Origin: Candidatus Harpocratesius repetitus
Lineage (GTDB): Archaea > Asgardarchaeota > Lokiarchaeia > Sigyniarchaeales > Promethearchaeaceae
Assembly: GCA_021498095.1 (NCBI GenBank)
Contig: JAIZWK010000001.1
Location: 840,001-872,000 of the forward strand
Length of the DNA: 32,000 bases
Reading direction: 5' to 3'
Below are positions 7,115 through 32,000 of this stretch, one piece after another. The stretch's first letter is position 1. Every line of letters begins with the position of its first letter. The notes under the pieces are model-generated. The model saw only the letters and a program-made list of their open reading frames with translations, did no database searches and was not told the origin of the DNA. A program made the translations under genes and the position numbers.

Positions 7115-9271
7115 TCATGGTTCGTTTGTTTGAAAATGCAGTTTTATTTCTGTAGATAATTCTTGAGCTGAAGCCGGGATAAAAGTGATGAATTGATAAA
7201 CCCAAGGTAATAGATGTTTTTGATATTCAAGAATCTGGCCGTCATAAAATAGTAGTATTGCGTGTTGAGAATTGTTAAATGGGGCAAAAGAACAAATTGC
7301 ATGTATTTTGAAAAATGCTTGGGATAAAGAATAAATTTGGGCCATCCGTGCATCATATTTACGTGTTAAGTATTTTTTACGGCGAAGAAGTCGAAGTGTC
7401 GAAGATTCAAATGGGAAAGAAATGAAAGAGAACACATCAAAGTAAGGTAATATGTGTAAAAGTTCAGTAAGAGAAATTTGAGAAAGATCCACTAATAAAA
7501 TATACTTTTTAGCATCAGAATATGTTTTATTGGATTCTTTTCTCATTTTGTTTAGATTTTCCAGCCATTTTAATATATAAGGAAATGTGTTGTTTTGATG
7601 AGATTCCCACCTCTTTACAGAATAATGCAATTTTTCTAAGCGCGGGATTAATTTATTCGAGAGTATTTCTTTAAATTGATGAGGATTGCTGAAGAAGACG
7701 ATTGTAGGACGATTTATCAATTGTGCATGGTATACCAACTTAGCTGTATATTTTGCTGAAATTACAGAAGAATAACGGGCTAGAAATGGGGTTATGGATG
7801 TATCTCCCCATACCTTAATTCGATCTTGGCTGATTTCGACAGGTAAAGATCGGATCTGAAAGCCTTTGGAGAGACTACCTAATCCTGTTATAGCTAAGTA
7901 AGATCGAACATCTAAGCTTGGAGATATTGAAATACTGCTAAATGCATTCTGGAATAGGGGATCACTGTAAAGTCGAATATCCATTAAATTCATGTGAAGT
8001 GTCGATGTTAATGGCGATATTGATTTTAATGATGAAGAAGAGGTTGATGATAGCGAGGAGGTTGATGATGAAGGTGTTAATAATGATGTTGATGTTGATA
8101 CTGTTCTTTCATTTGAAATCTCAATTGTAAATGCGTAGGGCAAGGTTGGAGTAGTTCTCTGCTGAATTACAACAAAAAAATAATTAAATAGAGCCAAAAA
8201 AGTTGAAAATATGGAAGAATCTTTAATAAAGGTGGAATCTGTTAGTAAAAATTTGAAATGATTGTGAAGAATACTTGCCAATCGATCGAAAGAACACTTA
8301 TGCTTTTCACAAAGATTAAATAGAAAATCAATAGGGCGAAATTGGAATTCTTCAGTTATTGGCATGGATTTTACTTTTGGTTGTTTTAGTGAATATGAAT
8401 TTGGATACGATTGAAAAGACTTTATATATTTTAGGAATAAGCTTAGAAATTTCGCAAAAAATCTATATTGAGTGACAGTTGGTGCATTTGACTTTAAATC
8501 TATAAGATAATTATAAAGTAATTCAATTTTCGATGTTTGAAGATGAATGGAATAATTGTTCAGAAGGTAATTATGAATTTGGTGGCAATCATCTAATATA
8601 AGGATAGAATTTTCAATGGATCCTATATTTTTAAAAAAACCTGGTTGGAGTGGATGAAAAGAAAATAAATCATCATAGGTAATGAAAATAATGCTCATTT
8701 CAGAAATAAAGTATTTAAGAATTTGTGAAATCGGAAGATTATTGGCTTCAGTAATATAGAATTGAATAATTTGCTGAAAGTCAAATTGGTGAACTGCGCA
8801 ATTTTCAGAGAAAGAATCGAATAAAGTCGAGATTTTTGATTTAATTTGAAGCATCTGTGATGAGGTAATAATTTGTTCTTCATTGATCTTTTTTTGAAAT
8901 TTCTTTCCTAAAATAGATTGTAATTGTGAATGATATCCGCATAAATCACAAATAAGAACTGAACTGAATAAAGATTCATCCATTGTTCTTAGACTTTGTA
9001 GGATTTGCTTTTTTTTAGATAAATCACTCAAAACAAAAACTAAATGCTTATGGTATTGTAAAATCATTGGTAGAGTTGCTTGAAATATTATTTCGTATCG
9101 GGAATGCTGCGGAGGAGCATAAAATAGTATATTTTTCTGTGCAGGGATATCATTCTGTAAAAAATTTACCACCCTATTAACATCGGGTGTTTTAACGATA
9201 GGTTCTATGAATGAATGAGAATTGATTTCACCATGTTCTGAAATAATAAAGTCAGTTACTCGATCAGCCAT
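7115..9271 (-). CDS. degenerate XPD/Rad3/DinG-like helicase homologue (probable pseudo-ATPase)
   Basis: Motif order resembles DinG/XPD, but Walker A reads FYAPPQHSRYE (no GxGKT), Walker B reads LILDDCHQI (for DEAHN) and motif III reads SISPSL (for TSGTL). Contains a Ser/Thr-rich insert. Confidence 0.6.
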   Translation of the reverse strand: MADRVTDFIISEHGEINSHSFIEPIVKTPDVNRVVNFLQNDIPAQKNILFYAPPQHSRYEIIFQATLPMILQYHKHLVFVLSDLSKKKQILQSLRTMDESLFSSVLICDLCGYHSQLQSILGKKFQKKINEEQIITSSQMLQIKSKISTLFDSFSENCAVHQFDFQQIIQFYITEANNLPISQILKYFISEMSIIFITYDDLFSFHPLQPGFFKNIGSIENSILILDDCHQIHNYLLNNYSIHLQTSKIELLYNYLIDLKSNAPTVTQYRFFAKFLSLFLKYIKSFQSYPNSYSLKQPKVKSMPITEEFQFRPIDFLFNLCEKHKCSFDRLASILHNHFKFLLTDSTFIKDSSIFSTFLALFNYFFVVIQQRTTPTLPYAFTIEISNERTVSTSTSLLTPSSSTSSLSSTSSSSLKSISPLTSTLHMNLMDIRLYSDPLFQNAFSSISISPSLDVRSYLAITGLGSLSKGFQIRSLPVEISQDRIKVWGDTSITPFLARYSSVISAKYTAKLVYHAQLINRPTIVFFSNPHQFKEILSNKLIPRLEKLHYSVKRWESHQNNTFPYILKWLENLNKMRKESNKTYSDAKKYILLVDLSQISLTELLHILPYFDVFSFISFPFESSTLRLLRRKKYLTRKYDARMAQIYSLSQAFFKIHAICSFAPFNNSQHAILLFYDGQILEYQKHLLPWVYQFITFIPASAQELSTEIKLHFQTNEP

Positions 9272-13505: not shown

Positions 13506-14228
13506 ATGTTTAGCACACCTGGACTTGGATACGATAGAGCCATAACGATCTTTTCCCCTGACGGACGTTTATTTCAGGTGGAATATGCTATTGAAGCAGT
13601 AAGACGTGGAACAACTGCCATTGCTGTAAAAAATGAAACTGGAGTTGTTTTTGCTGTTGAACGACGTAATCTCCCATTACAAGAACATCTTGGAAGTGAA
13701 AAACTCTTTAAAATCGATGATCATGTCGGTGTGGCTATCTCTGGGTTAACTGCTGATGCCAGGACTTTAATTGATCAAGCACGCGTTCATGCACAGGTCA
13801 ATATTCTAAGTTATGATGAAGAAGTTTCCGTTCTTGAAACAACTCGTGATCTGTGTGATCAATGTCAATTATATACGCAAAATGCAGGAGTGCGCCCTTT
13901 TGGAGTATCATTATTAATTGGTGGTGTGGATGATGATAAAACGGTGAACCTATATCTAACTGATCCATCAGGTGCATTCTGGGGATATAAAGCTTGTGCA
14001 ATTGGAAGTGGTTCAGCTCAAGCCCGAGAGTTTTTAGGAAAAGAATATAAAGAAACTATGGATTTTGAAGAGTTAAAACTTCTTACAATTCGCACATTAA
14101 AAGAAGTTATCGAGGGTGATTTAGATGCTGAACGATTTGAAATTGCTGTTATCAATGCAGAAGATAGACAATGGAAATTGTTTTCTATTGAAGAAAATAA
14201 AAAACTTCTGAAAAAATTAAACGAATAA
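13506..14228 (+). CDS. psmA: proteasome subunit alpha
   Basis: GYDRAITIFSPDGRLFQVEYA signature, RPFGVSLLIGG, DPSG, AIGSG. Confidence 0.98.
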   Translation: MFSTPGLGYDRAITIFSPDGRLFQVEYAIEAVRRGTTAIAVKNETGVVFAVERRNLPLQEHLGSEKLFKIDDHVGVAISGLTADARTLIDQARVHAQVNILSYDEEVSVLETTRDLCDQCQLYTQNAGVRPFGVSLLIGGVDDDKTVNLYLTDPSGAFWGYKACAIGSGSAQAREFLGKEYKETMDFEELKLLTIRTLKEVIEGDLDAERFEIAVINAEDRQWKLFSIEENKKLLKKLNE

Positions 14229-14438
14229 GACCTTTTCTGTTTATGAAATAAACAAAATTTTTTTACTCGATTTCATTGTAATTCTTAAATAACATATAAT
14301 ATATATCTTATTAGAAACGGTAAGAAACGATATTGTCCCAAATTATAATATTTCATTTAATAATTGCCGAAGATTTAAAAAATCTATGTAAATTTGGGCG
14401 ATATATTAGGATATAAGGAAAAATTGGAGAAAGGCAGG

Positions 14439-15230
14439 ATGTCTCACTCAAGGGGAGGGCCGAAAGGGAATTTCGATTTGGGAAAATATATTATTGTGAA
14501 AATTGAAAAAGCTAATCACAATTTTGAGATGATCGTTGATCCTGAAGAAGCCTGGAAAGCTAAACAAATACTCAAAGAAATGCGGCAAAAAGAGCAAAAT
14601 CATGAAATAACAGTTGATGATGTTTTATCTACATCTGAAATTGATTTAGAAAGCATTTTTCCCACATATGATTTCTTTCTTAATGTCAAAAAAGGTGATC
14701 GAGTCACCGAATCAGATTTAGAAAATGCATTTGGAACCACAGAAGAACGAAGAATTGCTGCTGATTTTTTATTAGAAGGTGACTTTGCTTGGACTAAAGC
14801 ACAACGTGAAAAATGGTTAGAAAAGAAAAGGAAACAAATAATTAATATCTTAGCTAGAAATTCCATTAACCCTCAAACAAAACATCCTCATCCCCCAAAA
14901 CGTATTGAAAAAGCACTAGAAGAAGCTCGTGTGTCGATTGACATAAATAAATCGGCAGAAGAACAAATAGATGATATAGTAAAACGAATTCAAGCTGTAA
15001 TACCTATCCGTATTGAAGCAATTCAAATGGCAATTAAGATTCCTGCGGAATATGCTGCTAAAGCTTACAACACGGTAGAGCAATATGCTCAAATAAAGCA
15101 ATCAGAATGGCAGACGGATGGTTCTTGGATTGGTATGATATCTTTACCTGCAGGTCTTCAAATGGAAATGCTTGATAAATTGAATAAATTAACTCATGGT
15201 AGAATGCAAAGTAAATTGATTCAAAAATAA
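14439..15230 (+). CDS. ribosome maturation factor SBDS/Sdo1
   Basis: FE.IVDP, KGD..TESDL..AFGT, INPQTKHPHPPKRIEKAL, QSEWQTDGSW; conserved position after psmA. ATG 14439 preferred over TTG 14394. Confidence 0.95.
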   Translation: MSHSRGGPKGNFDLGKYIIVKIEKANHNFEMIVDPEEAWKAKQILKEMRQKEQNHEITVDDVLSTSEIDLESIFPTYDFFLNVKKGDRVTESDLENAFGTTEERRIAADFLLEGDFAWTKAQREKWLEKKRKQIINILARNSINPQTKHPHPPKRIEKALEEARVSIDINKSAEEQIDDIVKRIQAVIPIRIEAIQMAIKIPAEYAAKAYNTVEQYAQIKQSEWQTDGSWIGMISLPAGLQMEMLDKLNKLTHGRMQSKLIQK

Positions 15231-15413
15231 ATTGACTTAATGCTATATGTTAAGCTATATTAAGCAAATTGACTTAACTTATAGGTAGTCTTCTTCAAAC
15301 AAATAAAAACAATGGGGATTTTTGAGAAGAGATCAAAACCTCTTTTCCTCTTTTCTTCCGTTCAAAATAAGAAAATTGTAACTTGTAAAAGTTGTAAAAA
15401 AAAAGTGAAAAAA

Positions 15414-16160
15414 ATGTCCGCGGAGAATAAACCAATACGAGAAATCGTTACTCCAGGTCAAGTTATTGCCACCGATCCTGGGTTAATTGCAGGAAGAGGG
15501 GCAATAAAGGAAGATAATGGTCAAATTACGTCTGTCTTTGTTGGATTAAAGGAAATCCGAGGAAAATATGTTAATGTTGTGCCATTAAATGGGCTTTATA
15601 ATCCTCAAATTGGAGATAAAGTAATAGGGCGAGTAATTGCAAAAACACCAGTAAAATTTCTGCTTGACATTAATGCAAAATTTTTAGGAATTTTGAAACC
15701 ATCTGATGCATTTAAAAGACCACATCAGAATCGGGGCTATCCAAAATCAATGGGTACATATAGATTGCCTCGAGAAAATGATATGGATAAGTTAAAAATG
15801 GGAGATCAAATTATTTGTAAAATTTTATCCGGATCACGAACTGAAGAACCAGCACTTACCAGCTTGGGTCAAGAGCTTGGACTAATCACAGAAGGGTTAG
15901 TTATTGCAATATCTCCCACAAAAATTCCCCGAGTGATTGGAAAAAAGGGAAGTATGATCGCCTTATTAAAGAATTTATTACATTGTAAAATTTTTGTGGC
16001 TCAAAATGGGCGTATTTGGATTCATGGACGAAATCCTGAAAATGAACGATTATTAATTGAAGTGATATATAAAATTGAGCGTGAAGCTCATACAACTGGA
16101 TTAACTGATAGAGTTAAAGCATATATTTTAAAAGAAAAGAAAATTCGAGGTATCAAATAA
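15414..16160 (+). CDS. rrp4: exosome cap subunit Rrp4 (S1 + KH)
   Basis: IVTPGQ, YNPQIGDKVIG (S1), KIPRVIGKKGSMI and AQNGRIWI (KH), EAHTTGLTDRV. ATG 15414 preferred. Confidence 0.95.
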   Translation: MSAENKPIREIVTPGQVIATDPGLIAGRGAIKEDNGQITSVFVGLKEIRGKYVNVVPLNGLYNPQIGDKVIGRVIAKTPVKFLLDINAKFLGILKPSDAFKRPHQNRGYPKSMGTYRLPRENDMDKLKMGDQIICKILSGSRTEEPALTSLGQELGLITEGLVIAISPTKIPRVIGKKGSMIALLKNLLHCKIFVAQNGRIWIHGRNPENERLLIEVIYKIEREAHTTGLTDRVKAYILKEKKIRGIK

Positions 16161-16162
16161 AA

Positions 16163-17308
16163 ATGCCAATCTTAGTACCAGAACCTCATGATGAAATATG
16201 TTTCCGTGAAGATGGAAAGCGATTAGATGGTCGAGCAGTGGACGAACTTCGTCCCTTTTCGTGTGAAGTAGGTGTAATTAAAAATGCTCAAGGGTCTGCT
16301 CTCGTAAGACACGGAGGTAATTTGATTTATGCAGCTATTTACGGCCCTCGAGAGGTGCATCCCCGTCATTTAGCCCGTCCCGATAAGGGAATTTTAAGAG
16401 TGTATTATCGAATGGCGACATTTTCCGTTCATGAACGAAAAAGTCCCGCACCAAATCGTCGTGAAAATGAAATTTCCAAAGTTATTCGGGAAGCTTTGGA
16501 ACCTGTATTGTTTTTGGAAGCTTATCCCGATTCCCAAATTGAAATATATATTGAAGTTATTGCTGCAGATGGGGGAACCCGGTGTGCAAGCACTACAGCT
16601 GCATCGTTAGCATTAGCTGATGCAGGAATTCCTATGAAAAGTATGGTTGTGGGTGTAGCAGCTGGAAAAGCACAGGGTCGTGTTTTACTTGATTTAGGTG
16701 ATAAAGAAGATAAAGTCGGTCAAGCAGACATTCCTTGTGTTGTAGTAATGAAAGATAAATCAATATCACTTCTGCAATTTGATGGTGAAATGTCTTTAGA
16801 AGAAATGAAAACTGGATTTGAATATGTATTAAAGGGTGCAGAAATCATTTATCAAAAGCAATTGGAAGCTTTGCGTGAAAAATATAATAAAATAACAAGA
16901 GAAGCTGAAATTGAGGACTCTGCAGTAGGAAATTTACCACAAAATGAGCAAAAGTCTATAAATGAATCCCAAAATGCTCAAGATAGTCTTCAAAATACTT
17001 CCCAAATTGATGAACAAATGAAGGTTCAAAATGAAAAACAAGAAATTAATAATGATCATAAAGCTGAACCATCTCCTTTAATGGAAAATTCATCTGCAAT
17101 TAATGAATCTCAAAAAGAAGTTGAGAAAGGGGAAGTCGAAGAAAAATCAAAGGATGAAAAATCAAGCGAAGAAAACATAATTAAATCCAGCGAACAATCC
17201 GCTAATTCCACTGATGATTCACCAAAACAAGGAGAAAACCAGTCTTCACAAGAAGAACAACAATTAAATACAGAAAATGATTCACCTTCAGGAGATGATC
17301 AAGAATGA
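16163..17308 (+). CDS. rrp41: exosome core subunit Rrp41 with ~140-aa acidic C-terminal extension
   Basis: RLDGRAVDELRP, GSALV, YGPRE, NRRENEISKVI, ADGGTRCAS and EDKVGQAD active-site motifs. Stop overlaps the rrp42 start (ATGA). Confidence 0.96.
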   Translation: MPILVPEPHDEICFREDGKRLDGRAVDELRPFSCEVGVIKNAQGSALVRHGGNLIYAAIYGPREVHPRHLARPDKGILRVYYRMATFSVHERKSPAPNRRENEISKVIREALEPVLFLEAYPDSQIEIYIEVIAADGGTRCASTTAASLALADAGIPMKSMVVGVAAGKAQGRVLLDLGDKEDKVGQADIPCVVVMKDKSISLLQFDGEMSLEEMKTGFEYVLKGAEIIYQKQLEALREKYNKITREAEIEDSAVGNLPQNEQKSINESQNAQDSLQNTSQIDEQMKVQNEKQEINNDHKAEPSPLMENSSAINESQKEVEKGEVEEKSKDEKSSEENIIKSSEQSANSTDDSPKQGENQSSQEEQQLNTENDSPSGDDQE

Positions 17309-18132
17309 TGGATATTAATGAAGTTGTGAGTAATTTAGAGAAAAACTATATCTTAAAACTTTTAAAACAAGGGAAAAGAATTGATGGTCGTGGGTTATTT
17401 GAATATCGCGATGTTAAAATCAAAACTGGGTTTATTCCGAAAGCTGAAGGTTCAGCAGATGTATTTTTAGGCGATACACGTGTTATGTGCGGAGTAAAAT
17501 ATGATATAGGTACTCCATTTTCAGATAATCCTGATAAAGGTGTTTGTACCGTTATGTCTGAATATTTACCGATTGCTTCTCCAATGTTTGAACCAGGACG
17601 ACCAGATGAAGTTGCAATTCAATTAGCCCGAGTAGTAGATAGAGGAATTCGTCATACTAATTGTATTGATTATAAAAAACTATGCATCAAAGAGGGCGAA
17701 TATGTTTATATTCTTTTCGTTGATTGTTATATGATGGATTATTTTGGGAATTTAACTGATGCTTCTGCGATTGCGGCGATAGCTGCCTTATTAAATACTA
17801 ATTTACCTGGGGCTAAATTAAACGAAGAAGGAGTTCCTGAATGGGATGGAACATATTCACCTTTAACCATTTATGAGATTCCACTTAGTATAAGTTTTGG
17901 TAAAGTTGGAAATGTTATTTTTGTGGATCCTAATTTATCTGAAGAAATGGTGCTCGATGGATCTATTGCTTTTGCAGTTGATGAGAAGAAACAGGTTACT
18001 TCCATCCAAAAATACGGAAATGCTACTTGGAGTGTTGAAGAAATCTTAGATACTTCGAAAAAAGCAATTGAAATTGCTGATGAATTACGAGCAAAATTGA
18101 ATTTACGCCAACACGTTCCTCAGCCTAAATAA
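17305..18132 (+). CDS. rrp42: exosome core subunit Rrp42
   Basis: RIDGRGLFEYR, KAEGSA.V.LGDT.V..GVK, PFSDNPDKG, LARVVDRGIR, DP.L.EE...DG. Confidence 0.96.
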   Translation: MMDINEVVSNLEKNYILKLLKQGKRIDGRGLFEYRDVKIKTGFIPKAEGSADVFLGDTRVMCGVKYDIGTPFSDNPDKGVCTVMSEYLPIASPMFEPGRPDEVAIQLARVVDRGIRHTNCIDYKKLCIKEGEYVYILFVDCYMMDYFGNLTDASAIAAIAALLNTNLPGAKLNEEGVPEWDGTYSPLTIYEIPLSISFGKVGNVIFVDPNLSEEMVLDGSIAFAVDEKKQVTSIQKYGNATWSVEEILDTSKKAIEIADELRAKLNLRQHVPQPK

Positions 18133-21446: not shown

Positions 21447-22226
21447 TTATCCATATGAAATTATCCTAAAAGAATCTTCGATTTTTAAAAAATAATTCAT
21501 ATTTTTGGAATTTAGCACTAATTCGCCCTCATCATTAATTCCATTAATAATACATTTTTTACCATTATTTAAGGTAATTTGGTTTCCTATATATAATAGA
21601 TGTTGATTATATTGTGATATTAGTAATGTTTTTTTATTTTTTGGAAAATTTACAATATATGATTCCCAAATTTCATGATATAAGTTCTTTAACAAGATTC
21701 GAGCAAAATTAACAATAGGAACTTTTGTATGAGTCAAATCAAAAACTGAGACTACATTTTCTTTTAAGTAATCTGGAAAATTTGTTGTCGAATTGTTTAA
21801 ATTTATACCAATTCCAATTAGAAGAAAATTGAAATTTACTTGAGAGATTAATTCTAGTAAAATTCCACCCATTTTCTTAAATCGATAAGAATTGGATGAA
21901 AAGGTAATAACTAAATCATTTGGCCATTTAATAACAGCAGGTATATTTAGGTATGTGTTTAGGAAAGATTGTAGAAGTTGAACGATTCCATAATGGAGAA
22001 AAACAAATTGTTCATTAGATAAAAGTTTTGGTAAGGGTATTCCAAGAGTGCTCCAAAATCCTCCAATTGGAGAGATCCAATCATCATTCTTTCGTCCTCT
22101 TCCGTGTTTTTGGGTTTTTGCAATCAAAAAAATACTTTGATTTGAGTTTTGGTGAATATATGGAATGATTGCATCTTGAGTTGATGAAACTTCATCAATA
22201 TAAATTATCTTTACAGAAGGTATCAC
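21447..22226 (-). CDS. birA: biotin--protein ligase, class I (no N-terminal HTH)
   Basis: SSTQD, Q.HGRGRK...W.SP.GG, IKWPNDL, KMGGILLE, IGIGINL motifs; GTG start. Confidence 0.93.
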   Translation of the reverse strand: MIPSVKIIYIDEVSSTQDAIIPYIHQNSNQSIFLIAKTQKHGRGRKNDDWISPIGGFWSTLGIPLPKLLSNEQFVFLHYGIVQLLQSFLNTYLNIPAVIKWPNDLVITFSSNSYRFKKMGGILLELISQVNFNFLLIGIGINLNNSTTNFPDYLKENVVSVFDLTHTKVPIVNFARILLKNLYHEIWESYIVNFPKNKKTLLISQYNQHLLYIGNQITLNNGKKCIINGINDEGELVLNSKNMNYFLKIEDSFRIISYG

Positions 22227-22433: not shown

Positions 22434-24008
22434 ATGATTTTAGAAAAAATTGAAGGTAGCCAATCACCTTCACCTTCTTCATCTGATCTTATTGGGCTCC
22501 GACGTAAGTCTAAAGAAGGTGGAGGGCCATTAAAAATCGAATCTCAACACCGGAAAGGAAAAATGACTGCTCGGGAGCGAATTGATTTATTAATTGATCC
22601 TGGAACCTTCACAGAAATCGATGAGTTTATACTTCATCGCTCCACTAAATTTGGGATGGAACATCAAAAATACTATGGTGATGGTGTTGTCACGGGATTT
22701 GGTTTCATCAATGGGAGAAAAGTATTCTTATATAGTCAAGATTTTACTGTTATGGGCGGAAGTTTAGGGAATGCACACGCTAAGAAAATTTGTAAAATTA
22801 TGGATCTTGCAATTAAAAATGGTTGTCCTATAATTGCTCTTCTTGATTCTGGGGGTGCCAGAATTCAAGAGGGTGTAGATTCTTTAGCTGGATTTGGCGA
22901 AATCTTCCATCGAAATGTTCAAGCTTCAGGTGTCATTCCTCAAATATCCGTTATTTTAGGTTCATGTGCAGGAGGTGCGGTCTATAGTCCTGCACTTACA
23001 GATTTCGTCATCATGGGTGGGGATCATGCATATATGTTCGTTACTGGGCCTCAAGTTGTCGAATCTGTGACAGGAGAACAAGTTTCTTTTAATGATCTTG
23101 GGGGGAAGGATATTCATGCGAATATTTCGGGTGTTGCACATCTGGTCGCTAATTCTGAAGAACAAACCTTGGATCTGGTAAAAAAATTACTATCTTACAT
23201 CCCTTCCAATAATTTAATGGATGCACCACGAGGAAATACTGAATTAGAGCCAGATCAAACCATAAATCTTGATACAATAATTCCAGAAAATGAAAATGAA
23301 CCTTATGATATGAAATTTGTAATTAAAGGAATTATTGATAAAGGCTCTTTCTTTGAAATTTTTCCTTCTTTTGCTAAAAATATCATCACAGGATTTGGAC
23401 GTTTACAAGGGAATACAATTGGAATAATTGCTAATCAACCAATGGTTTTGGGAGGCGCAATAGACTTTCATGCTTCTGATAAAAGTGCCAGATTCATCCG
23501 ATTTTGTGATTCGTTTAATATTCCTATTTTGACATTAGTTGATGTTCCTGGTTTCATGCCTGGAACTAAACAAGAATATGCTGGTATAATCCGGCATGGA
23601 GCTAAGATGATATTTGCATATTCTGAAGCAACAGTTCCAAAAATCACGATTATTACTAGAAAAGCATATGGGGGTGCATATATCGTTATGGCTTCAAAGC
23701 ATTTGGGCGCAGATATTAATTTAGCGTGGAATTCTGCCCAAATTGCCGTTATGGGTGCTGAAGGTGCATGTAAAATTCTTTATCGAAAAAAAATTCAAAA
23801 ATCTGACGATCCAGAGAAAGAATTAGAAAGATATATTGCACAATATAAACGAGAGTTTTCAAATCCATTTCAAGTTGCTGAATTGGGCTATGTTGATAAA
23901 GTCATTTTTCCTTCAGAATCCCGTTCAATTATTTTAAATTCGCTGCAATTTCTTATAAATAAGCGTGAAAATGTCCCAAAAAGAAAGCATGGTAATTTTC
24001 CTGTCTGA
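22434..24008 (+). CDS. acyl-CoA carboxylase carboxyltransferase subunit (PccB/AccD type)
   Basis: GKMTARERID.L.DPG.F.E, DGVVTGFG, QDFTVMGGSLG, DSGGARIQEG, GSCAGGAVYSPALTD, DVPGFMPG, RKAYGGAY, KHGNFP. Confidence 0.97.
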   Translation: MILEKIEGSQSPSPSSSDLIGLRRKSKEGGGPLKIESQHRKGKMTARERIDLLIDPGTFTEIDEFILHRSTKFGMEHQKYYGDGVVTGFGFINGRKVFLYSQDFTVMGGSLGNAHAKKICKIMDLAIKNGCPIIALLDSGGARIQEGVDSLAGFGEIFHRNVQASGVIPQISVILGSCAGGAVYSPALTDFVIMGGDHAYMFVTGPQVVESVTGEQVSFNDLGGKDIHANISGVAHLVANSEEQTLDLVKKLLSYIPSNNLMDAPRGNTELEPDQTINLDTIIPENENEPYDMKFVIKGIIDKGSFFEIFPSFAKNIITGFGRLQGNTIGIIANQPMVLGGAIDFHASDKSARFIRFCDSFNIPILTLVDVPGFMPGTKQEYAGIIRHGAKMIFAYSEATVPKITIITRKAYGGAYIVMASKHLGADINLAWNSAQIAVMGAEGACKILYRKKIQKSDDPEKELERYIAQYKREFSNPFQVAELGYVDKVIFPSESRSIILNSLQFLINKRENVPKRKHGNFPV

Positions 24009-24086: not shown

Positions 24087-26180
24087 ATGAAAAAACCACA
24101 TGAAATACTTAAAATTTTAAACAACACATTGCCGATCTGGGGATATAATCCTCAAGGTTTTGAAGATATAACTGTTCTTGTAACCCTCTGCGAAAATAAT
24201 GCTGTAGGTATATTAAATACTGAATCTCTTTCTATTTTACAGACTAATAAAATAATTAAACGAATATCAAAACAAATACAACCTTCAAAAATATGGGGAA
24301 TTCGCATTACTAATGAAGATTTCATCTCTGATTTAGATTTTAGCACAAATAATGTGATTGCAATTTGTTCGTTTGTTCCATCAAGTAAAAGTCTTGAAAT
24401 TTTAAAAAAGAAATCACTGCTTATCTGTGCAGAAGTGTTGACTTCACAAGAAGCAAAATCTAAAGCAAAATGGGCCGATTTTTTCTTAGTTCGCGGAAAT
24501 GAAGCCGGTGGTTTTGTTAGTAATCGAAATTCTTTCATTCAAATTCAAGAATTCTACAAATTGGGATATAGCTTTATCATTGAAGGTGGATTTGGCATAT
24601 ACAATGTTGGTGCGGCCTTAATTGGTGGTGCTCTTGGTGTAGTTTATGAATCACAATTGTATTTATTAAATGAATCTCCATTAAGTCATCAATTTAAATC
24701 TTATATTAAAACCCTGCAAGAAAATGATTTCTACTTGTTTGCTGAAAGTGAACATTTTAACTTTCGTTTGATTGGAAAATTGGCCAATAAATCTATTCGA
24801 GAAGTTAAATTGAAAGAAAAAGACTTTTATAAGCAAATTCTTGAAAAAGAAGGAGATATTACCCGAGAAGAGTTCACAAAAATTTTATTTAGTGTTATTC
24901 AAAAAGATCGGGGAAAACAAATTGGATTTCCGGATTTTTCATCAAAATACCCTAAACATTCATTTCTTCCTTGTGATCATGGTATCATTTTTGCAAATCA
25001 GATTGCTGAGCAATTTCAGTCCATTTCAAGATTTATTCAAAAAATAACTGAAATTATTATTCGACAACATAAATTAATTAAAAAACAGTGGCCTTTTCAA
25101 GAATCTAGCCCATTTGCTCAGAATATAAATGTCAAATATCCTATCATCCAAGGTCCAATGGCAAATATTACTGAATCGATTGAATTTGCCCAAATTGTTG
25201 CAGATCACGGAGCATTACCGACATTTGCTTTAGGGGGTTTGATGGGACCTGAAGCAGATGCATTATTGGAAAAAATCTCAAATTCATCTTTACAAAACTA
25301 CCAATATATGGCTGGAATTATTGGATTAGAAGTTGTTAAAAAACGTCGTGAACTTCAATTAGAATCTATAAAAAAACACAATGTTCCCTTTACATTAATT
25401 GCAGCAGGTTCAGTTGATTTAGCCAAACAAGTAATTAGACAAGGTGAAAGAGTTTTTTTACATACTCCTGCTCTATCTATGTTTAAAGAAGCCGTGAAAA
25501 ACCAAATTGAATTTTTAATTTTAGAAGGGAGTGAATGTGGAGGTCATATTGGAACCCTTTCATCTTGGATATTGTGGGAAAACATACTTCAATACTGTAA
25601 AAAAGAACAACAATCATTTTCTCAAAAAATTAACGTTATTTTCGCAGGAGGTATTATTAATGAAACCAGCAGTGCGATGTTGGCGATGATGATTGGTGAT
25701 CATCTCGATATAATCAATCCTGGAATTCAGATGGGAACATCCTATCTTTTCACTCCAGAAATTACATCTTCAAAGGCATTATCTCCCCTTTATCAGAATC
25801 TATTGTTGAATCATGACTCAACTCGTGTCATAGGCGCAACTGTAAATACACGAGCACGTGTAATTCCATCGATATTTAGTTCAGAAACAATCAAAAAAGA
25901 ACTTCATCGAATAACAGAAGAAATTCCAATTTCAAAGCGTAAAGAACTTTATGAAAAGGATAATTTGGGTGCTTTGCGAATTGCTGCACAAGCAGAAATC
26001 TGGAATAATGATCATATTCCAGGAACAGGGACTACTCAATTTATTCCAATATCTCCAGAAAAACAAGAAAAACTAGGTGCATTCATGACTGGCGAGTCAC
26101 TAACTCTTCGTACGACAGTCGTCCCTATAAAAAATTTACACTACGATATTACCAAAGGAGGATTTCATAAAGTTTCAAAT
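24087..26180 (+). other. domains: tandem FabK/nitronate-monooxygenase-like (PfaD-type) enoyl-reductase barrels
   Basis: Barrel 1 has RGNEAGGF, IIEGGFG and GALGV. Barrel 2 has YPIIQGPM, LEGSECGGH, IFAGGI and GIQMGTSY. Boundaries are approximate. Confidence 0.8.
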
Positions 26181-29100
26181 CTTCAAAAATATAATTCATT
26201 GAATCAAATTCTTAATTTTAAGAATCAATTAAAATCCAAGCCTGTTTTTGAAAAAACAAAAAAAAAATTCGCCGATTCTCGGGTTGCAATAGTAGGAATT
26301 GGTGGAGTATTTCCTGATGCTTCAAATATTAATGAATTCTGGGATAATATTTTATCAGAGAAATATTCTATTACTGAGGTTCCTAAAGATCGATGGAATT
26401 ATGAAATATATTTCAGTGAAGATCGAAATCAAAAAGATAAAACTTACACTAAAATTGGGGGTTTTATCAAGGACTTTAAATTCAAATCAATTAAATTTCG
26501 AATCCCCCCACAAATGGCTAAGAGAATGGATCCTGTCCAGAAATGGGCTTTAACTGCAGCTAAAGAGGCGTTAATGGATGCAAATTATCCTATTGATGGA
26601 AAACAATCTCTATCATTGGCTGTTATTATCGGAAACTCTTTAGGGGGGGAAATTCAAAGATATAATGATAAAAGGGTCTTCTTCAACGAAATTAATCACT
26701 ATCTATATCAAGCAGAAAAGAAAAATATCGGAGATTCAAACTCTATTCGGAGAATTAAATCTTATCTTGAAGAAAATATAATCAAAAATATTCTTCCTAT
26801 TAATGAAGATACAATGCCTGGTGAATTATCAAATATAATTGCTGGCAGAATTAGTAATGTCTTCAATTTAAACGGAAAGAATTTAACTACTGATGCAGCA
26901 TGTGCTTCAAGTCTTGCAGCTTTAGATACAGCGGTAAAGGGTCTTCTATTAGGAGATTACGACGCAGTTTTAGCCGGTGGGGCTGATCATTCAATGGATC
27001 CATCTGTTTTTATAAAATTCTCAAAGATTGGGGCGCTTTCCGCAAAAAAGTCTTGTCCATTTGATGCAGAAGCAGATGGTTTTGTTATGGGAGAAGGAGC
27101 AGGTTTTGTTGTACTTAAACGATTATCTGATGCAATTCGCGATAATAATAAAATTTATGCGGTAATTAGGGGAATAGGTGCTTCTTCAGATGGTAGAGGT
27201 AAAGGAATTACTGCACCTAACCTACAAGGTCAAAAAATGGCTGTCATACGAGCGCTAGACTCCGCTAAAATTCAAGAAAAAGATCTTCAATATATTGAAT
27301 GTCATGGTACTTCCACTGTAATAGGAGATGCTACTGAATTAATGGTGCTTCAAGAATTACTCCACTCTAAAAATCCATCTCAGAAAATTGCAATTGGTTC
27401 TGTTAAAAGTCAAATTGGGCACTTAAAAAGTGCAGCTGCTATCGCTTCAATTATCAAAACGAGTCTGGCACTTTATCATAAAATTATCCCTCCTTCTATA
27501 AATTTTAATATTCCAAATCCCAAAATTGACTGGGATAATGTTCCTTTTTATGTAAATACTCACGCTAAAGAATGGATTCGTCCTCAAAATTCCATAAGGA
27601 GAGCAGGTGTTTCAGCTTTTGGATTTGGTGGGACCAATTTTCATGTCATATTAGAAGAGTTTTGTCCCGAATCTTTAAACAATTCTATAAATTCTATTCC
27701 AGAATATATTCCATATTCTGAGGGAATCATTCAAACGAATCAAAAAAGTGCATTTTCATTTGATAATTCTGATCCTTCTTTAGTATTTATGTTTAGTGGT
27801 CAAGGAAGTCAATATGTCGGGATGGGTCATGAATTATATGAGACAATTCCAGAAATACGAGATATCTTAAATCGTGCTAATGAAATTTGTCAGAGTTTTG
27901 GAGATTTTAACCTTCTTCAAATTTTATTTGGTGATAAATCGAAATCAAAAAGTGAAAATCAAAAAATATTAACTCAAACACAGTTCACTCAACCAGCGAT
28001 TTTTAGCTTGGAAATTGCCTTATTCAAATATTTAAATAACCGTGGGATTGTCCCAGGAATTGTTGCCGGTCATAGTTTGGGAGAATTCTCTGCCCTTGTT
28101 ACTGCAGGAGTGATGGATTTTGAAGATGCATTAAAAGCTGTCATTATTCGAGGTCAAGCAATGGGTACATCCACTCCTGATTCTAAATGTGGAATGGCTG
28201 CCCTATTGTGTCCAATTTCTCAGGTAGAAGAAATTCTAAAAAAAGTTAAAGAGGGAAATGTTTCGATTTCTAATTATAATTCTCCTACACAGACTGTTAT
28301 TTCAGGTGATTTGGTAGGTATTCAAAATGCCTTAAAAGTATGTCAAAAAGAAAATGTTAGAGCAAAACAATTAAATGTGTCACAAGCGTTTCATTCAAAA
28401 TTTGTGGCATCTGCTGGTTCTAAATTAGCGGAGTATTTAAATACCATCAAATTTCATAAACCAAATATTCCAGTATACAGCAATGTCTTAGGCAGTGCAT
28501 ACCCGACTAATTCTGATAAAATAAAGGGGATTTTATTAGATCAAATTACCTCACCTGTACGTTGGACTGACGAGATAGAGCAGATTTATAATGCGGGAGG
28601 AAGAAAATTTGTAGAAGTTGGACCTAAAAAAGCCTTATTCTACTTTGCTAAAGAAATTTTGAAAAAAGCAAAAAATGTTTCTCAATTCTTTACTTTAACT
28701 CCAAAAAAATCTGAAGTAGAATATCTAAAACAAATAACAGACGAAATTAGTAATCAAATGCAAAATAGAGAGCAAAATTTTTCCTTAAAATCCAAATATC
28801 TCTTTTCTAAACAGAATTTACCGAAGATACTTAGCCAAAATAAAGAAATATCAAATAATAATGTGTTTGATGAATTAATTTCTGATAAAACTATCCAAAG
28901 TCTTAGTACACAACCTCATTTTAGAGAATTTCTTGCTCAACAAAAAGAAATACTCGCCCCCATGTTAAAAGCATCCTATTCTCAATTTATTCGCTTGTAT
29001 AGACAAGAACAAGAACGAAAAAAGAAAGAATCGTCACAATTTATCCAAAATACACTACAAATTGGAGTAACCGGTGTTGGATTGGGAATTCCAGGAAAAA

Positions 29101-32000
29101 ATCGAAATGTATTCGATGATTCTAACATTATTGCAATTTTAAATGGGGAAAATTTTATTGAACCTCTTCCTGAAGAAGTTAAAAAAGGAATATTAGATAA
29201 AAATATTGTTCGATTAAATAAAACTTCTAATGGAGATGCCTCTTTTATAGAAATAAAGGATATTTCTCAAGTTATTCATCTTGCTGGGCAAATTGGTGCA
29301 TTTGATCCCAAAAAAGATTTTCTTCTGGATGATAAACTGCTGAATGCTCTGGATATCACTTCAAAATTAGCAATTGGCGCCGGATTGGAAGCTTTGAAAG
29401 ATGCTGGAATTCCTTTAGTAAAATCAAAGATTACTACAACAACAGGTAAGATAATTTCTGGAGATTGGGCATTACCAGAAGAACTACAAAGAGATACCGG
29501 TGTTATTTTTGCCTCTGCATTTCCTGGATTGGACAATTTGGTAAAGGATCTTACCACTCACTTAACACAACAGTTAAAATTAGAAACATTTGAGAAATTT
29601 AATCAAAAGTTTTCCAAATTTCTAAATGAAATTTCTCATTCCAAAATTAAAAAAGAGTTAGAAGAATGGTATTATGAAAATAAAGCCTTAATTTTTGGTG
29701 ATAAGAAAGATCTTATACATTTTAACCGTGCATTTCTCTTTCGAATCTTATCCATGGGTCATTCCCAATTTGCACAAATTATCAAAGCTAAAGGGCCAAA
29801 TACACAAGTAAATGCTGCATGTGCATCTACTACTAATGCTTTCGCAATTGCTGAAGACTGGATTAGAACTGGGCGCTGTAATCGAGTAATTGTGATTTCT
29901 GGAGATTGTCCAACTACAAAAAGTCTCTTTCCATGGCTTGGAGCAGGATTTGTTGCAAGTGGAGCTGGAACAATCAAACAAAACTTAACAGATGCAGTTT
30001 TACCCTTTGGAATTGGTCGAAATGGCCTTATTGCTGGAGCGGGTGCGTCTGCATTTGTTCTAGAAACTCAATCTGAATCAAATAGACGTGGGATTAAGCC
30101 AATCGTTGATTTATTAGGAACACAAATAAGCAATAGTGCATATCATGGATCTCGTCTTGATAAACTAGACATTACGGAAGAATTCAATCGTTTTATTACA
30201 ACAATGGTTAATCAACACAAAATCACAAAATCTGAAATTGCTCGTAAAGGTATGTTTGTCAGTCATGAAACTTACACACCGGCTCGAGGTGGAAGTTCTG
30301 AATCAGAATTGGAAGCATTATCTAATACTTTCGGACCAGATGTGAGTAAATTACTCATTATCAACACCAAAGGATTTACTGGTCATCTTATGGGAGTTGG
30401 TATGGAAGAAGCTGTTGCGATAAAATCAATTGAGTACGGGATTATTCCTCCAATTGCAAATTTTGGTAAAATAGATCCAAAATATAGCAAGTTTTACTTC
30501 TCAACTGGGATTAAAGAACGAAAAGATTATGCAATTCGGTTTGCTGCAGGTTTTGGATCCCAAATTGCAATTTTAATGTTCCGAAAAAATACACCCACTA
30601 ATAGAAAGGATGAAAAAGTGTATCATGCTTGGCTTCAATCTGTTGCAGGTTCAACTTCTCTCTTTTTAGATGGCCGAGTTTTAAAAGTAGACTCAAAACA
30701 GCAAATTTCATTCTCACAAAAGCAATCAATTCCATCTATTTTACAAACATCAAAATCAAATGAAACAATTTTAGCCACCTTGATTCAAATTATTGCTGAA
30801 AAAACAGGTTATGATATCTCAGATCTTGAACCACAGTACCATTTAGAAGAAGATTTAGGGATTGATACGATTAAACAAGCAGAGATTTTCGGAGAAATTG
30901 GAGAGAAATGGAATATTGAGGAAAATCAGTCTTGGAATATTAGTGAAATGCAAAGTATTGCGGATATAGCCAAAGTATTATCGCGAATGGTGAATGACTC
31001 ATCTCAGATTTCATCCCAGACTTCAAGTAATAATCATATTAATCAAAATAATTGGGAAGAAAAAGTCCGGGCAATTATTTCGGAAATTACAGGTTATGAT
31101 CATGAAGATATTCAATTGGATTTTGATTTAGAAGAAGATCTGGGGATTGATACCATAAAACAAGCAGAGATTTTTGGTAGAATTAGAGAAGAATGGCAAA
31201 TTCCTGAAGAGACTAGTATCAATCTTACAGAATTTCGTAGTATTAATGATATTCTTGCCTTTTTATCTAAAAATTTCTCTGGTTCCAGCTCTCAAACTAA
31301 AAATACCATTGATCTAAGTACATCAGAAACAAATATTGACCAACCAACTCAAATCAAAGAAGAGGAGATCAAGAAAATTATATCTGAAGTGACTGGTTAT
31401 GATCTTGAAGATATTCAATCTGATTTTGATTTAGAAGAAGATCTGGGGATTGATACCATAAAACAAGCCGAAATTTTTGGGCGCATTAGAGAAGAATGGC
31501 AAATCTCTGAAGATACTCAAATAAATCTAGCTGATTTTCGAACGATTCAAGATATTTTAACTCTTTTGAATTCAACTAAAAAAGTAAATAATTCAATAGA
31601 TAATAGTGTTGCAACTGTCGATAATTCTCAGATCTCTAAAAGTAATGATAAAAATAGAAGTGAATCCAATATAGATCAAGTTAAATCAATTATTGCAGAA
31701 ATTACAGGTTATGATTCAGAAGATTTGGAACTAGATTTTGATTTAGAGGAAGATCTGGGGATTGATACCATAAAACAAGCGGAAATATTTGGTCAGATTC
31801 GTGAGAAATGGCAAATTTCAGATGAATCTTTGATTAATATCGCTGAATTTCGGACAATAAGAGATATTTTAAATTACATCACAAAAATTAATGAAAGAAA
31901 TCTAAGTTCCCAAGAAATTCCCCAAATTGCGAAATCATCAAATGAAAATAGAACAGTAAACGAAATTATAGAATCACGAATAAAATCGATAATATCAAGA
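24087..32000 (+). CDS. giant type I FAS/PKS-like synthase: pseudoER-ER-KS-AT-KS-ACPn (3'-partial, at least 2638 aa; not in the ORF track)
   Basis: GAGGT at 24075-24079, ATG 24087. Hand translation stays open to the window end, and every motif falls in the same frame: YPIIQGPM (25137), ECGGH (25533), DAACASS (26892), HGT (27303), GH (27417), GQGSQ (27798), GHSLG (28068), NAACAST (29811), four GIDTIKQ. Confidence 0.95.
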   Translation, partial: MKKPHEILKILNNTLPIWGYNPQGFEDITVLVTLCENNAVGILNTESLSILQTNKIIKRISKQIQPSKIWGIRITNEDFISDLDFSTNNVIAICSFVPSSKSLEILKKKSLLICAEVLTSQEAKSKAKWADFFLVRGNEAGGFVSNRNSFIQIQEFYKLGYSFIIEGGFGIYNVGAALIGGALGVVYESQLYLLNESPLSHQFKSYIKTLQENDFYLFAESEHFNFRLIGKLANKSIREVKLKEKDFYKQILEKEGDITREEFTKILFSVIQKDRGKQIGFPDFSSKYPKHSFLPCDHGIIFANQIAEQFQSISRFIQKITEIIIRQHKLIKKQWPFQESSPFAQNINVKYPIIQGPMANITESIEFAQIVADHGALPTFALGGLMGPEADALLEKISNSSLQNYQYMAGIIGLEVVKKRRELQLESIKKHNVPFTLIAAGSVDLAKQVIRQGERVFLHTPALSMFKEAVKNQIEFLILEGSECGGHIGTLSSWILWENILQYCKKEQQSFSQKINVIFAGGIINETSSAMLAMMIGDHLDIINPGIQMGTSYLFTPEITSSKALSPLYQNLLLNHDSTRVIGATVNTRARVIPSIFSSETIKKELHRITEEIPISKRKELYEKDNLGALRIAAQAEIWNNDHIPGTGTTQFIPISPEKQEKLGAFMTGESLTLRTTVVPIKNLHYDITKGGFHKVSNLQKYNSLNQILNFKNQLKSKPVFEKTKKKFADSRVAIVGIGGVFPDASNINEFWDNILSEKYSITEVPKDRWNYEIYFSEDRNQKDKTYTKIGGFIKDFKFKSIKFRIPPQMAKRMDPVQKWALTAAKEALMDANYPIDGKQSLSLAVIIGNSLGGEIQRYNDKRVFFNEINHYLYQAEKKNIGDSNSIRRIKSYLEENIIKNILPINEDTMPGELSNIIAGRISNVFNLNGKNLTTDAACASSLAALDTAVKGLLLGDYDAVLAGGADHSMDPSVFIKFSKIGALSAKKSCPFDAEADGFVMGEGAGFVVLKRLSDAIRDNNKIYAVIRGIGASSDGRGKGITAPNLQGQKMAVIRALDSAKIQEKDLQYIECHGTSTVIGDATELMVLQELLHSKNPSQKIAIGSVKSQIGHLKSAAAIASIIKTSLALYHKIIPPSINFNIPNPKIDWDNVPFYVNTHAKEWIRPQNSIRRAGVSAFGFGGTNFHVILEEFCPESLNNSINSIPEYIPYSEGIIQTNQKSAFSFDNSDPSLVFMFSGQGSQYVGMGHELYETIPEIRDILNRANEICQSFGDFNLLQILFGDKSKSKSENQKILTQTQFTQPAIFSLEIALFKYLNNRGIVPGIVAGHSLGEFSALVTAGVMDFEDALKAVIIRGQAMGTSTPDSKCGMAALLCPISQVEEILKKVKEGNVSISNYNSPTQTVISGDLVGIQNALKVCQKENVRAKQLNVSQAFHSKFVASAGSKLAEYLNTIKFHKPNIPVYSNVLGSAYPTNSDKIKGILLDQITSPVRWTDEIEQIYNAGGRKFVEVGPKKALFYFAKEILKKAKNVSQFFTLTPKKSEVEYLKQITDEISNQMQNREQNFSLKSKYLFSKQNLPKILSQNKEISNNNVFDELISDKTIQSLSTQPHFREFLAQQKEILAPMLKASYSQFIRLYRQEQERKKKESSQFIQNTLQIGVTGVGLGIPGKNRNVFDDSNIIAILNGENFIEPLPEEVKKGILDKNIVRLNKTSNGDASFIEIKDISQVIHLAGQIGAFDPKKDFLLDDKLLNALDITSKLAIGAGLEALKDAGIPLVKSKITTTTGKIISGDWALPEELQRDTGVIFASAFPGLDNLVKDLTTHLTQQLKLETFEKFNQKFSKFLNEISHSKIKKELEEWYYENKALIFGDKKDLIHFNRAFLFRILSMGHSQFAQIIKAKGPNTQVNAACASTTNAFAIAEDWIRTGRCNRVIVISGDCPTTKSLFPWLGAGFVASGAGTIKQNLTDAVLPFGIGRNGLIAGAGASAFVLETQSESNRRGIKPIVDLLGTQISNSAYHGSRLDKLDITEEFNRFITTMVNQHKITKSEIARKGMFVSHETYTPARGGSSESELEALSNTFGPDVSKLLIINTKGFTGHLMGVGMEEAVAIKSIEYGIIPPIANFGKIDPKYSKFYFSTGIKERKDYAIRFAAGFGSQIAILMFRKNTPTNRKDEKVYHAWLQSVAGSTSLFLDGRVLKVDSKQQISFSQKQSIPSILQTSKSNETILATLIQIIAEKTGYDISDLEPQYHLEEDLGIDTIKQAEIFGEIGEKWNIEENQSWNISEMQSIADIAKVLSRMVNDSSQISSQTSSNNHINQNNWEEKVRAIISEITGYDHEDIQLDFDLEEDLGIDTIKQAEIFGRIREEWQIPEETSINLTEFRSINDILAFLSKNFSGSSSQTKNTIDLSTSETNIDQPTQIKEEEIKKIISEVTGYDLEDIQSDFDLEEDLGIDTIKQAEIFGRIREEWQISEDTQINLADFRTIQDILTLLNSTKKVNNSIDNSVATVDNSQISKSNDKNRSESNIDQVKSIIAEITGYDSEDLELDFDLEEDLGIDTIKQAEIFGQIREKWQISDESLINIAEFRTIRDILNYITKINERNLSSQEIPQIAKSSNENRTVNEIIESRIKSIISR
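26280..27660 (+). other. domain: ketosynthase 1 (type I / Pfa-like), Cys-His-His intact
   Basis: RVAIVGIGGVFPDA start, MDPVQ, DAAC (Cys 26901), ECHGT (His 27303), KSQIGHLK (His 27420), SAFGFGGTNFH. Confidence 0.95.
27783..28680 (+). other. domain: acyltransferase (malonyl-CoA:ACP transacylase-like)
   Basis: FMFSGQGSQY, TQPAIF, GHSLGE (Ser 28074), Arg in IRG, SQAFHS, PVRW, FVEVGP. Confidence 0.93.
29058..30587 (+). other. domain: ketosynthase 2 (FabF-like), Cys-His-His intact
   Basis: IGVTGVG start, EALKDAG, NAAC (Cys 29820), SHET (His 30264), TKGFTGHLMG (His 30384), AAGFGS. Confidence 0.88.
30762..32000 (+). repeat. tandem ACP domains: 4 complete plus the probable start of a fifth, all with GIDT
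   Basis: TGY...LEEDLGIDTIKQAEIFG with the Thr codon at 30867, 31152, 31455 and 31767 (spacing 95, 101 and 104 aa). IKSIISR at the window end resembles helix 1 of another copy. Confidence 0.92.

Follow-up and report, generated by a model that had tools for sequence, protein, structure and literature searches.

Domain organization of the megasynthase

Near one end of a 32,000-nucleotide stretch of the genome of the Asgard archaeon Candidatus Harpocratesius repetitus (contig JAIZWK010000001.1, positions 840,001 to 872,000; hereafter the window), a long open reading frame (ORF) encodes a megasynthase with two ketosynthase (KS) domains, KS1 and KS2, whose kinship and possible division of work are the subject of this study. 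The ORF lies on the forward strand, as do all the domains described below; it starts at 24087 and runs past the window's last position, 32000, for another 3,474 nt. Its full length, read from the genome (a single 4.36-Mb contig), is 3,795 aa (L002:87-11474). Matches to Pfam and NCBIfam models give the domain order: a FabK-like unit, a FabK/NMO-type enoyl reductase (ER), KS1, a KS–acyltransferase linker, the acyltransferase (AT) itself, a second linker, KS2, five acyl carrier proteins (ACPs), a ketoreductase (KR), a PS-type dehydratase (DH) and a phosphopantetheinyl transferase (PPTase). Judged by its domains and motifs, the ORF is a full reducing cycle in one polypeptide, with two putative Cys-His-His-Lys active sites, one malonyl-type AT, five ACPs, KR, DH and ER.

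TIGR02813, the NCBIfam model of the PfaA subfamily, scores 1056.1 bits (cut-off 1010.1) when summed over the KS, AT, ACP and KR–DH segments, all in one frame. Relative to this model, KS2 is an insertion, placed between model positions 887 and 1189. A domain search of the ORF found no match to PF07977 (the FabA-type dehydratase/isomerase) and no chain length factor (CLF), which makes a polyunsaturated fatty acid (PUFA) product unlikely.

The two ends of the protein have features of their own. The N-terminus (24087-26186) consists of two successive FabK/NMO-like units, the first of ~340 aa, and the NMO/FabK models match only the second (aa ~340-610). When either unit was used as a tblastn query, fusion to the synthase was found in 5 of 80 loci, all five from metagenome-assembled genomes (MAGs) of Asgard or unclassified archaea. 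At the C-terminus, the PPTase (an ACPS domain, PF01648, 6.6e-18) is fused to the same ORF rather than encoded by a separate gene. The tandem ACP array starts at 30750, and four of its five repeats lie inside the window (to 32000). Every carrier domain has the motif LGIDT, that is, Thr where the phosphopantetheine Ser is expected (30852-31790 and beyond; aa 2257, 2352, 2453 and 2557 in the window).

The two ketosynthases and the acyltransferase between them

The condensing region, KS1–AT–KS2, spans 26259-30611 within this one ORF. A first-pass annotation, made from the letters of the window alone, had placed it at 26280-30587, which was essentially right, and all of the KS1 and KS2 motifs that it quoted are present in the translation. 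KS1 (26259-27671, aa 725-1195; Pfam and NCBIfam matches) is a PfaA/type I-like ketosynthase that scores 440 bits against the KS part of TIGR02813. Its catalytic set comprises Cys939 (nt 26901), His1073 (27303), Lys1107 (27405) and His1112 (27420), within or near the motifs DAAC, HGTST, KSQIGH and FGFGGTN (the FGFGG at aa 1178). The single AT follows (27783-28688, aa 1233-1534; PF00698, 1.6e-49; FabD model TIGR00128, 1e-63), and its GHSLGE and QAFH motifs point to a malonyl-type enzyme. The segment between AT and KS2 (28689-29033) is a low-complexity, helical linker of ~115 aa with no domain match.

KS2 (29034-30611, aa 1650-2175) is of a different type, as the first-pass annotation had proposed: its NCBIfam and PDB matches, its structural model and its position in the tree all mark it as a FabF/type II-like ketosynthase in a clade of its own. 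It matches FabF-type NCBIfam models only, with no PKS (polyketide synthase) or PfaA model at E < 0.001. Its score against TIGR03150, the FabF equivalog model, is 125.3 bits, below the cut-off of 493.75, and only the C-terminal two thirds align; we therefore call it FabF-like rather than a FabF orthologue. FabFs are also its best sequence matches in the PDB (E ~3e-22), and the catalytic Cys, His and Lys/His align with theirs. The KS2 set is Cys1912 (nt 29820), His2060 (30264), Lys2095 (30369) and His2100 (30384), with a gating Phe2156 (30552), and the corresponding motifs are NAAC, HETYT, TKGFTGH and AGFGS. The codons at 26901 and 29820, earlier proposed as those of the two active-site cysteines, are indeed the right ones (Cys939 and Cys1912).

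AlphaFold2 models KS2 with a pLDDT of 88 and a pTM of 0.87 from a 21-sequence alignment. In a Foldseek search with this model, FabFs rank first. An exhaustive VIA-align search gave Z scores of 40.5 for the actinorhodin KS, 38.3 for E. coli FabF and 36.6 for FabB, followed by 31-35 for type I KSs and 26.8 for the PfaC KS-CLF (6riw_A). The long helical insert that had been noticed at about 29540-29730 is real: the model shows a helical hairpin of ~55 aa (29529-29696, aa 1815-1870; model helices 126-159 and 163-181) at a place, following the Ile108 region, that is a short loop in FabF. A second insert, a beta hairpin of ~20 aa, is also present.

Both active sites are conserved across the family

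We collected relatives from two protein searches and compared 225 KS2 and 175 KS1 domains. (The counts and the trees below use KS1 cut at residues 725-1155 and KS2 at 1690-2180; alignments A2 and A3 use corrected cuts.) In KS2, the catalytic Cys, both His residues and the gating Phe are kept in all 225 sequences and the Lys in 224; in KS1, the Cys and the second His are kept in all 175, and the first His and the Lys in 174 each. KS2 also has invariant or nearly invariant motifs specific to its family: SHETYTP, NTKG[FY]TGH and AAGFGSQ. By contrast, when the reference CLF from PfaC is placed in the same alignment, the Cys, the Lys and the GFGG motif are missing from it. Going by these residues, both KSs are predicted to be catalytically competent; the retention of Cys-His-His noted earlier for the Harpocratesius protein thus extends to the full catalytic sets and to the whole family.

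The helical hairpin is less constant. The region is long (59-82 residues) in ~180 of the 225 KS2 members and short (25-39) in ~45, a group that includes close Promethearchaeota relatives of the Harpocratesius protein. Since about a fifth of the members lack the long form, the insert is not essential to KS2.

Among the 163 proteins that contain both domains, any two KS1 sequences are on average 51.0% identical and any two KS2 sequences 51.4%, and the distance matrices of the two are strongly correlated (Mantel r 0.875; none of 500 permutations was as high). These equal identities and correlated distances imply that KS2 is as constrained as KS1 and co-inherited with it, rather than being a decaying copy. 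The KS1 and KS2 subtrees show the same groupings, and their agreement dates the fusion to the origin of the family; it was not a local event in the Harpocratesius lineage.

Separate ancestry of KS1 and KS2

The two KSs of the Harpocratesius protein match each other with only 42 bits in BLASTP, as compared with 77 bits for E. coli FabF vs KS2 and 150 bits for FabF vs KS1. For the trees, we used as references E. coli FabF and FabB, a FabF-like protein, several KSs from trans-AT PKSs and one pfa cluster (G211:C18, L105), in which the gene order is PfaD, PfaA, PfaC and PfaC comprises KS-CLF-AT plus FabA-type DH domains. PfaD-family matches in the genomes of five relatives and in several gammaproteobacteria proved to be unrelated loci or trans-AT PKS clusters and yielded no pfa cluster; the KSs of the trans-AT clusters served as type I references.

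A careful maximum-likelihood (ML) tree (37 rows, LG+C20+F+G4) splits the sequences with 100/100 support. KS2 shares its side with the two E. coli enzymes, FabF and FabB, and with the FabF-like protein; KS1 falls on the other, together with the KSs of PfaA and PfaC, the PfaC CLF and the KSs of trans-AT PKSs. The KS2 sequences are monophyletic, their stem being 3.6 changes per site long, and a 79-row quick-search tree agrees with the careful one. Two alternative placements were rejected by the approximately unbiased (AU) test: KS2 as a CLF of the PfaC type (p 0.001), a role at odds also with its retained catalytic residues, and KS2 as a duplicate of KS1 (p 0.0008), one of the outcomes that the first-pass annotation had named as counting against its proposal of two fused KSs of separate origin. 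That proposal has held up well: the trees support separate ancestries for KS1 and KS2, with KS2 on the FabF/type II side. KS2 is not, on this phylogenetic and residue evidence, a chain length factor.

Distribution, variants and an earlier description of the family

KS2-type domains are represented by 482 sequences at 50% clustering (E <= 1e-30). In the best 150 of these 482, the domain lies ~1,000-2,100 aa into a megasynthase, save for a few short or partial proteins. When one genome per species was scanned, at least 592 loci came to light. Among the matches listed, the hosts are Asgard archaea, Thermoplasmatota, Acidobacteriota (including Korobacteraceae and Bryobacteraceae), Chloroflexota, Actinomycetota, Elusimicrobia and Myxococcota, and the closest homologues are annotated as Promethearchaeota, Heimdallarchaeota and Hodarchaeota.

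This architecture has been catalogued before. Shulse and Allen (2011, PLoS One 6:e20146, PMC3098273) described a "Type R" secondary lipid synthase, a pfaA homologue with the order KS-MAT-"CLF"-ACP(3-6)-KR (MAT, malonyl acyltransferase), in Koribacter, Solibacter, Elusimicrobium and Roseiflexus, sometimes accompanied by an acetyl-CoA carboxylase gene and with a product that was unknown at the time. The second KS position was labelled "CLF" there, and its active site was not discussed (PMC3098273). KS2 relatives at 44-47% identity are found in MAGs of Korobacteraceae, Bryobacteraceae, Elusimicrobia and Chloroflexia, the same phyla as Type R although not the named Type R strains. The first-pass annotation therefore overstated how unusual the arrangement is: it was on record in 2011, it recurs at hundreds of loci, and two active KSs are normal for PUFA synthases. 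Our literature search found no later paper characterizing the Type R family, and nothing on a KS-AT-KS architecture, on PfaA-type megasynthases of Asgard archaea or on the Type R product.

Some variants are informative about KS2 itself. In one naturally split cluster (the contig with P0194), five consecutive genes encode a KS-AT protein of 779 aa, KS2 (589 aa), the ACPs (475 aa), KR-DH (701 aa) and the PPTase (219 aa); that KS2 exists here as its own gene implies that it is an autonomous unit. The cluster is preceded by genes for electron transfer flavoprotein (ETF) and acyl-CoA dehydrogenase. A lone KS2 paralogue of 552 aa (P0135; L088:10001-11659, genome G406) has intact catalytic residues and no PKS neighbours. 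We considered it as proof that KS2 can work without KS1 and set it aside, as a full synthase of 3,524 aa is encoded elsewhere in that genome, on a different contig. Another relative, P0200 (3,350 aa), has two KS1-type domains ahead of AT and KS2, and hence three KSs in one polypeptide.

How the two ketosynthases may share the work

The reading towards which we lean on balance, if only slightly, is that KS1–AT–KS2 serves for condensation in an iterative synthase of the PfaA-like Type R kind, where two competent KSs share one AT and five ACPs and divide the cycles between them. Both would carry out decarboxylative Claisen condensations on ACP-bound chains, and elongation cycles would be split between KS1 and KS2 by chain length or by the state of the beta carbon. 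The synthase would be a dimer, and each KS would probably pair with its own counterpart on the two-fold axis; we favour separate homodimers because the partner subunit in KS heterodimers normally loses its catalytic residues, and KS2 has not. KS2 would have been inserted by fusion, between AT and ACPs, when the family arose, and inherited together with KS1 ever since. Paired KSs have type II parallels in FabB/FabF and KasA/KasB. A division of labour between KS1 and KS2 is also plausible by analogy with PUFA synthases, which use their two KS domains differentially according to chain length (PMC11962503).

One residue may bear on which share would fall to KS2. The invariant Phe of its ASAFPG motif aligns at or beside Ile108 of FabF (Phe163/Ile108), an alignment-based equivalence that is unreliable next to the insertion. 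In FabF, the I108F substitution restricts the enzyme to short chains. A Phe beside this position, at the floor of the acyl pocket, would hint at a short-chain or priming role for KS2.

Several points weigh against the reading with two divided, homodimeric KSs. Because its stem is long, the precise position of KS2 could be affected by its branch length. The references are few, with one pfa cluster and without type II PKS KS-alpha or CLF sequences, KasA/B or ladderane KSs. The domains used for the trees were cut short, KS1 by its last ~40 aa and KS2 by its first ~40 aa. Our literature search found no biochemical or expression data on any member, and the division of labour is argued by analogy only. 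The arrangement as separate homodimers is tentative, as a predicted KS1:KS2 heterodimer reached the level of weak support (see below). Finally, in Type R members that have no ER in cis, the chemistry and the roles of the KSs could differ.

The best of the alternatives, which we consider unlikely but worth keeping in view, is that KS1 and KS2 pair with each other, within one polypeptide or in trans, in the manner of a KS/CLF heterodimer, so that each polypeptide would contribute one pseudo-dimer; KS2 would then be a "live CLF" that shapes or extends the tunnel and perhaps primes by decarboxylating malonyl-ACP. The 2011 label for the KS2 position agrees with this, as does the precedent of KS and CLF in cis in PfaC. 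KS1 and KS2 both bear insertions at one shared site, close to the dimer interface and pocket, and the top structural neighbours of the KS2 model include KS-alpha subunits of KS/CLF heterodimers (1tqy_A, 6smo_B and 6kxd_A). A KS1:KS2 heterodimer was predicted with an ipSAE of 0.50 (0.45-0.57 between runs), whereas none of three controls scored above 0.00; at least 69% of contacts recur between runs, and the partner pLDDT is at least 78. The prediction tool rates this as weak support: of 80 solved complexes 58 reach its pass mark, as do 2 of 110 mismatched pairs, and scores of 0.60 or below came from 7 of the 80 solved complexes and from both passing mismatches. Moreover, all KSs use the same dimer face, so a modelled KS:KS pair can score by likeness alone, and KS1:KS2 was scored without homodimers alongside. 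Against a KS/CLF-like pair there is also the invariance of the KS2 catalytic residues, which known heterodimeric partners lose, and the rejection by the AU test of a clade uniting KS2 with the PfaC CLF. KS2 is, in addition, a separate gene in the split cluster, and an extra, lone paralogue occurs in a genome with a full synthase.

In a variant of this arrangement that strikes us as improbable, the heterodimer would have both sites live, one of type I and one of type II derivation, and the chain would change pockets on reaching a set length. If true, such a live heterodimer would add a third way of programming chain length to the two others, KS/CLF pairs and separate homodimers of KSs.

It is also rather doubtful that KS2 performs one special step while KS1 runs all of the ordinary cycles. 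That step could be initiation, by making or condensing an acetyl starter, or a terminal, Pks13-like condensation of two long chains. A domain search found no FabH-like or KSQ loading domain in the system, so some domain must prime, and the Phe at or beside Ile108 fits a priming KS, although, as noted, the equivalence is weak beside an insertion. Against such a step for KS2, PfaA-type KSs are thought to prime themselves. For the terminal condensation, the clustered acyl-CoA carboxylase is suggestive: AccD4 carboxylates a long acyl chain for Pks13, and the clustered enzyme could do likewise. It is, however, explained more simply by malonyl-CoA supply in an archaeon that seems to possess no further fatty acid synthase, nor does the cluster contain another AT, an additional carrier domain or an acyl-AMP ligase with which a second chain could be loaded.

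That KS2 is a redundant or decaying duplicate without a catalytic role we regard as very improbable: the sole point for decay is the long stem branch, against which stand the invariant catalytic residues in 225 relatives, a rate of change equal to that of KS1, retention in more than 590 species genomes and the rejection of a KS1 duplication.

Gene neighbourhood

Directly upstream of the synthase lies the gene for an acyl-CoA carboxylase carboxyltransferase (22434-24008, forward strand; PF01039, 1.5e-192), and upstream of that, in divergent orientation, a BirA-like biotin-protein ligase (21447-22226, reverse strand). Downstream, beyond the window, are an alpha/beta hydrolase, a biotin carboxyl carrier protein and a biotin carboxylase (L002:11474-15631). 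This is the Asgard gene order (BirA, carboxyltransferase, megasynthase, alpha/beta hydrolase, biotin carrier, biotin carboxylase), found also at the Heimdall and Hod loci (L010-L012). Family-wide, 33 of the 50 loci with full flanks have a biotin carboxylase close to the synthase. The flanking carboxylase set probably supplies malonyl-CoA as the extender, and the alpha/beta hydrolase is a candidate for the hydrolase that releases the product.

Elsewhere in the window, genes for an archaeal proteasome alpha subunit, SBDS, Rrp4, Rrp41 and Rrp42 lie in a row (13506-18132), the Rrp41 homologue having a long, acidic, low-complexity C-terminal tail. These genes, with the annotation of the closest synthase homologues, mark the host as an Asgard-type archaeon. 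On the reverse strand, a 718-aa ORF (7115-9271) has a low-complexity middle rich in Ser, Thr and Leu.

Implications

In most iterative type I synthases, one KS is enough to programme chain growth; the exception that has been studied is the PUFA synthases. In the present family, the sharing of a single AT and a single ACP array by two KSs can be addressed in a compact natural system, and some of its members are single polypeptides with their own PPTase. To the earlier description of Type R we add that its "CLF" is a universally conserved, fully equipped FabF-like KS that forms a clade of its own, and that the family is present in Asgard archaea, in a version with its own ER and PPTase. The 2011 label is accordingly misleading for annotation and genome-mining tools. 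The Asgard cluster, with its own carboxylase, is a candidate route to fatty-acyl chains in a lineage related to eukaryotes and so bears on the "lipid divide"; it may also contain the sole ACP-dependent synthase of fatty-acid type that Asgard archaea possess.

Comparison with known systems

The enediyne PKS (PKSE) has the layout KS-AT-ACP-KR-DH-PPTase. It is PfaA-related and iterative and, like the Harpocratesius ORF, ends with KR-DH-PPTase in cis; it differs in having one KS, one ACP and no ER.

The Type R order of KS, MAT, a second KS-like domain, three to six ACPs and KR is matched by the Harpocratesius ORF, and a link to acetyl-CoA carboxylase genes is common to both. The PPTase is a downstream gene in the 2011 description (PMC3098273), whereas here it is fused C-terminally; the Harpocratesius ORF adds the N-terminal FabK-like unit and FabK-like ER, and its host is archaeal. 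The second domain, called "CLF" then, appears here as a fully equipped KS of FabF-like ancestry.

The PUFA synthases PfaA-D are alike in their iterative type, tandem ACPs, KR, PS-DH and FabK/PfaD-type ER. They too have two active KSs per system, KS_A in PfaA and KS_C in PfaC, and KS1 groups with the Pfa KSs. However, their KS_C-CLF didomain and FabA-type DH domains, which we see in the reference cluster (L105), are not found in the Harpocratesius ORF, and their KS_C and CLF are unrelated to KS2. Here, moreover, all of the domains are in one polypeptide, in the order KS-AT-KS.

FabF-type enzymes are the best matches to KS2 itself in both sequence and fold, and KS2 shares with them the Cys-His-His-Lys set and a GFG gating loop; it differs in its HETYTP and AAGFGSQ motifs, its two hairpin inserts and its embedding in a type I polypeptide. 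As pairs of KSs with different chain preferences, FabB/FabF and KasA/KasB provide the type II parallel to KS1 and KS2.

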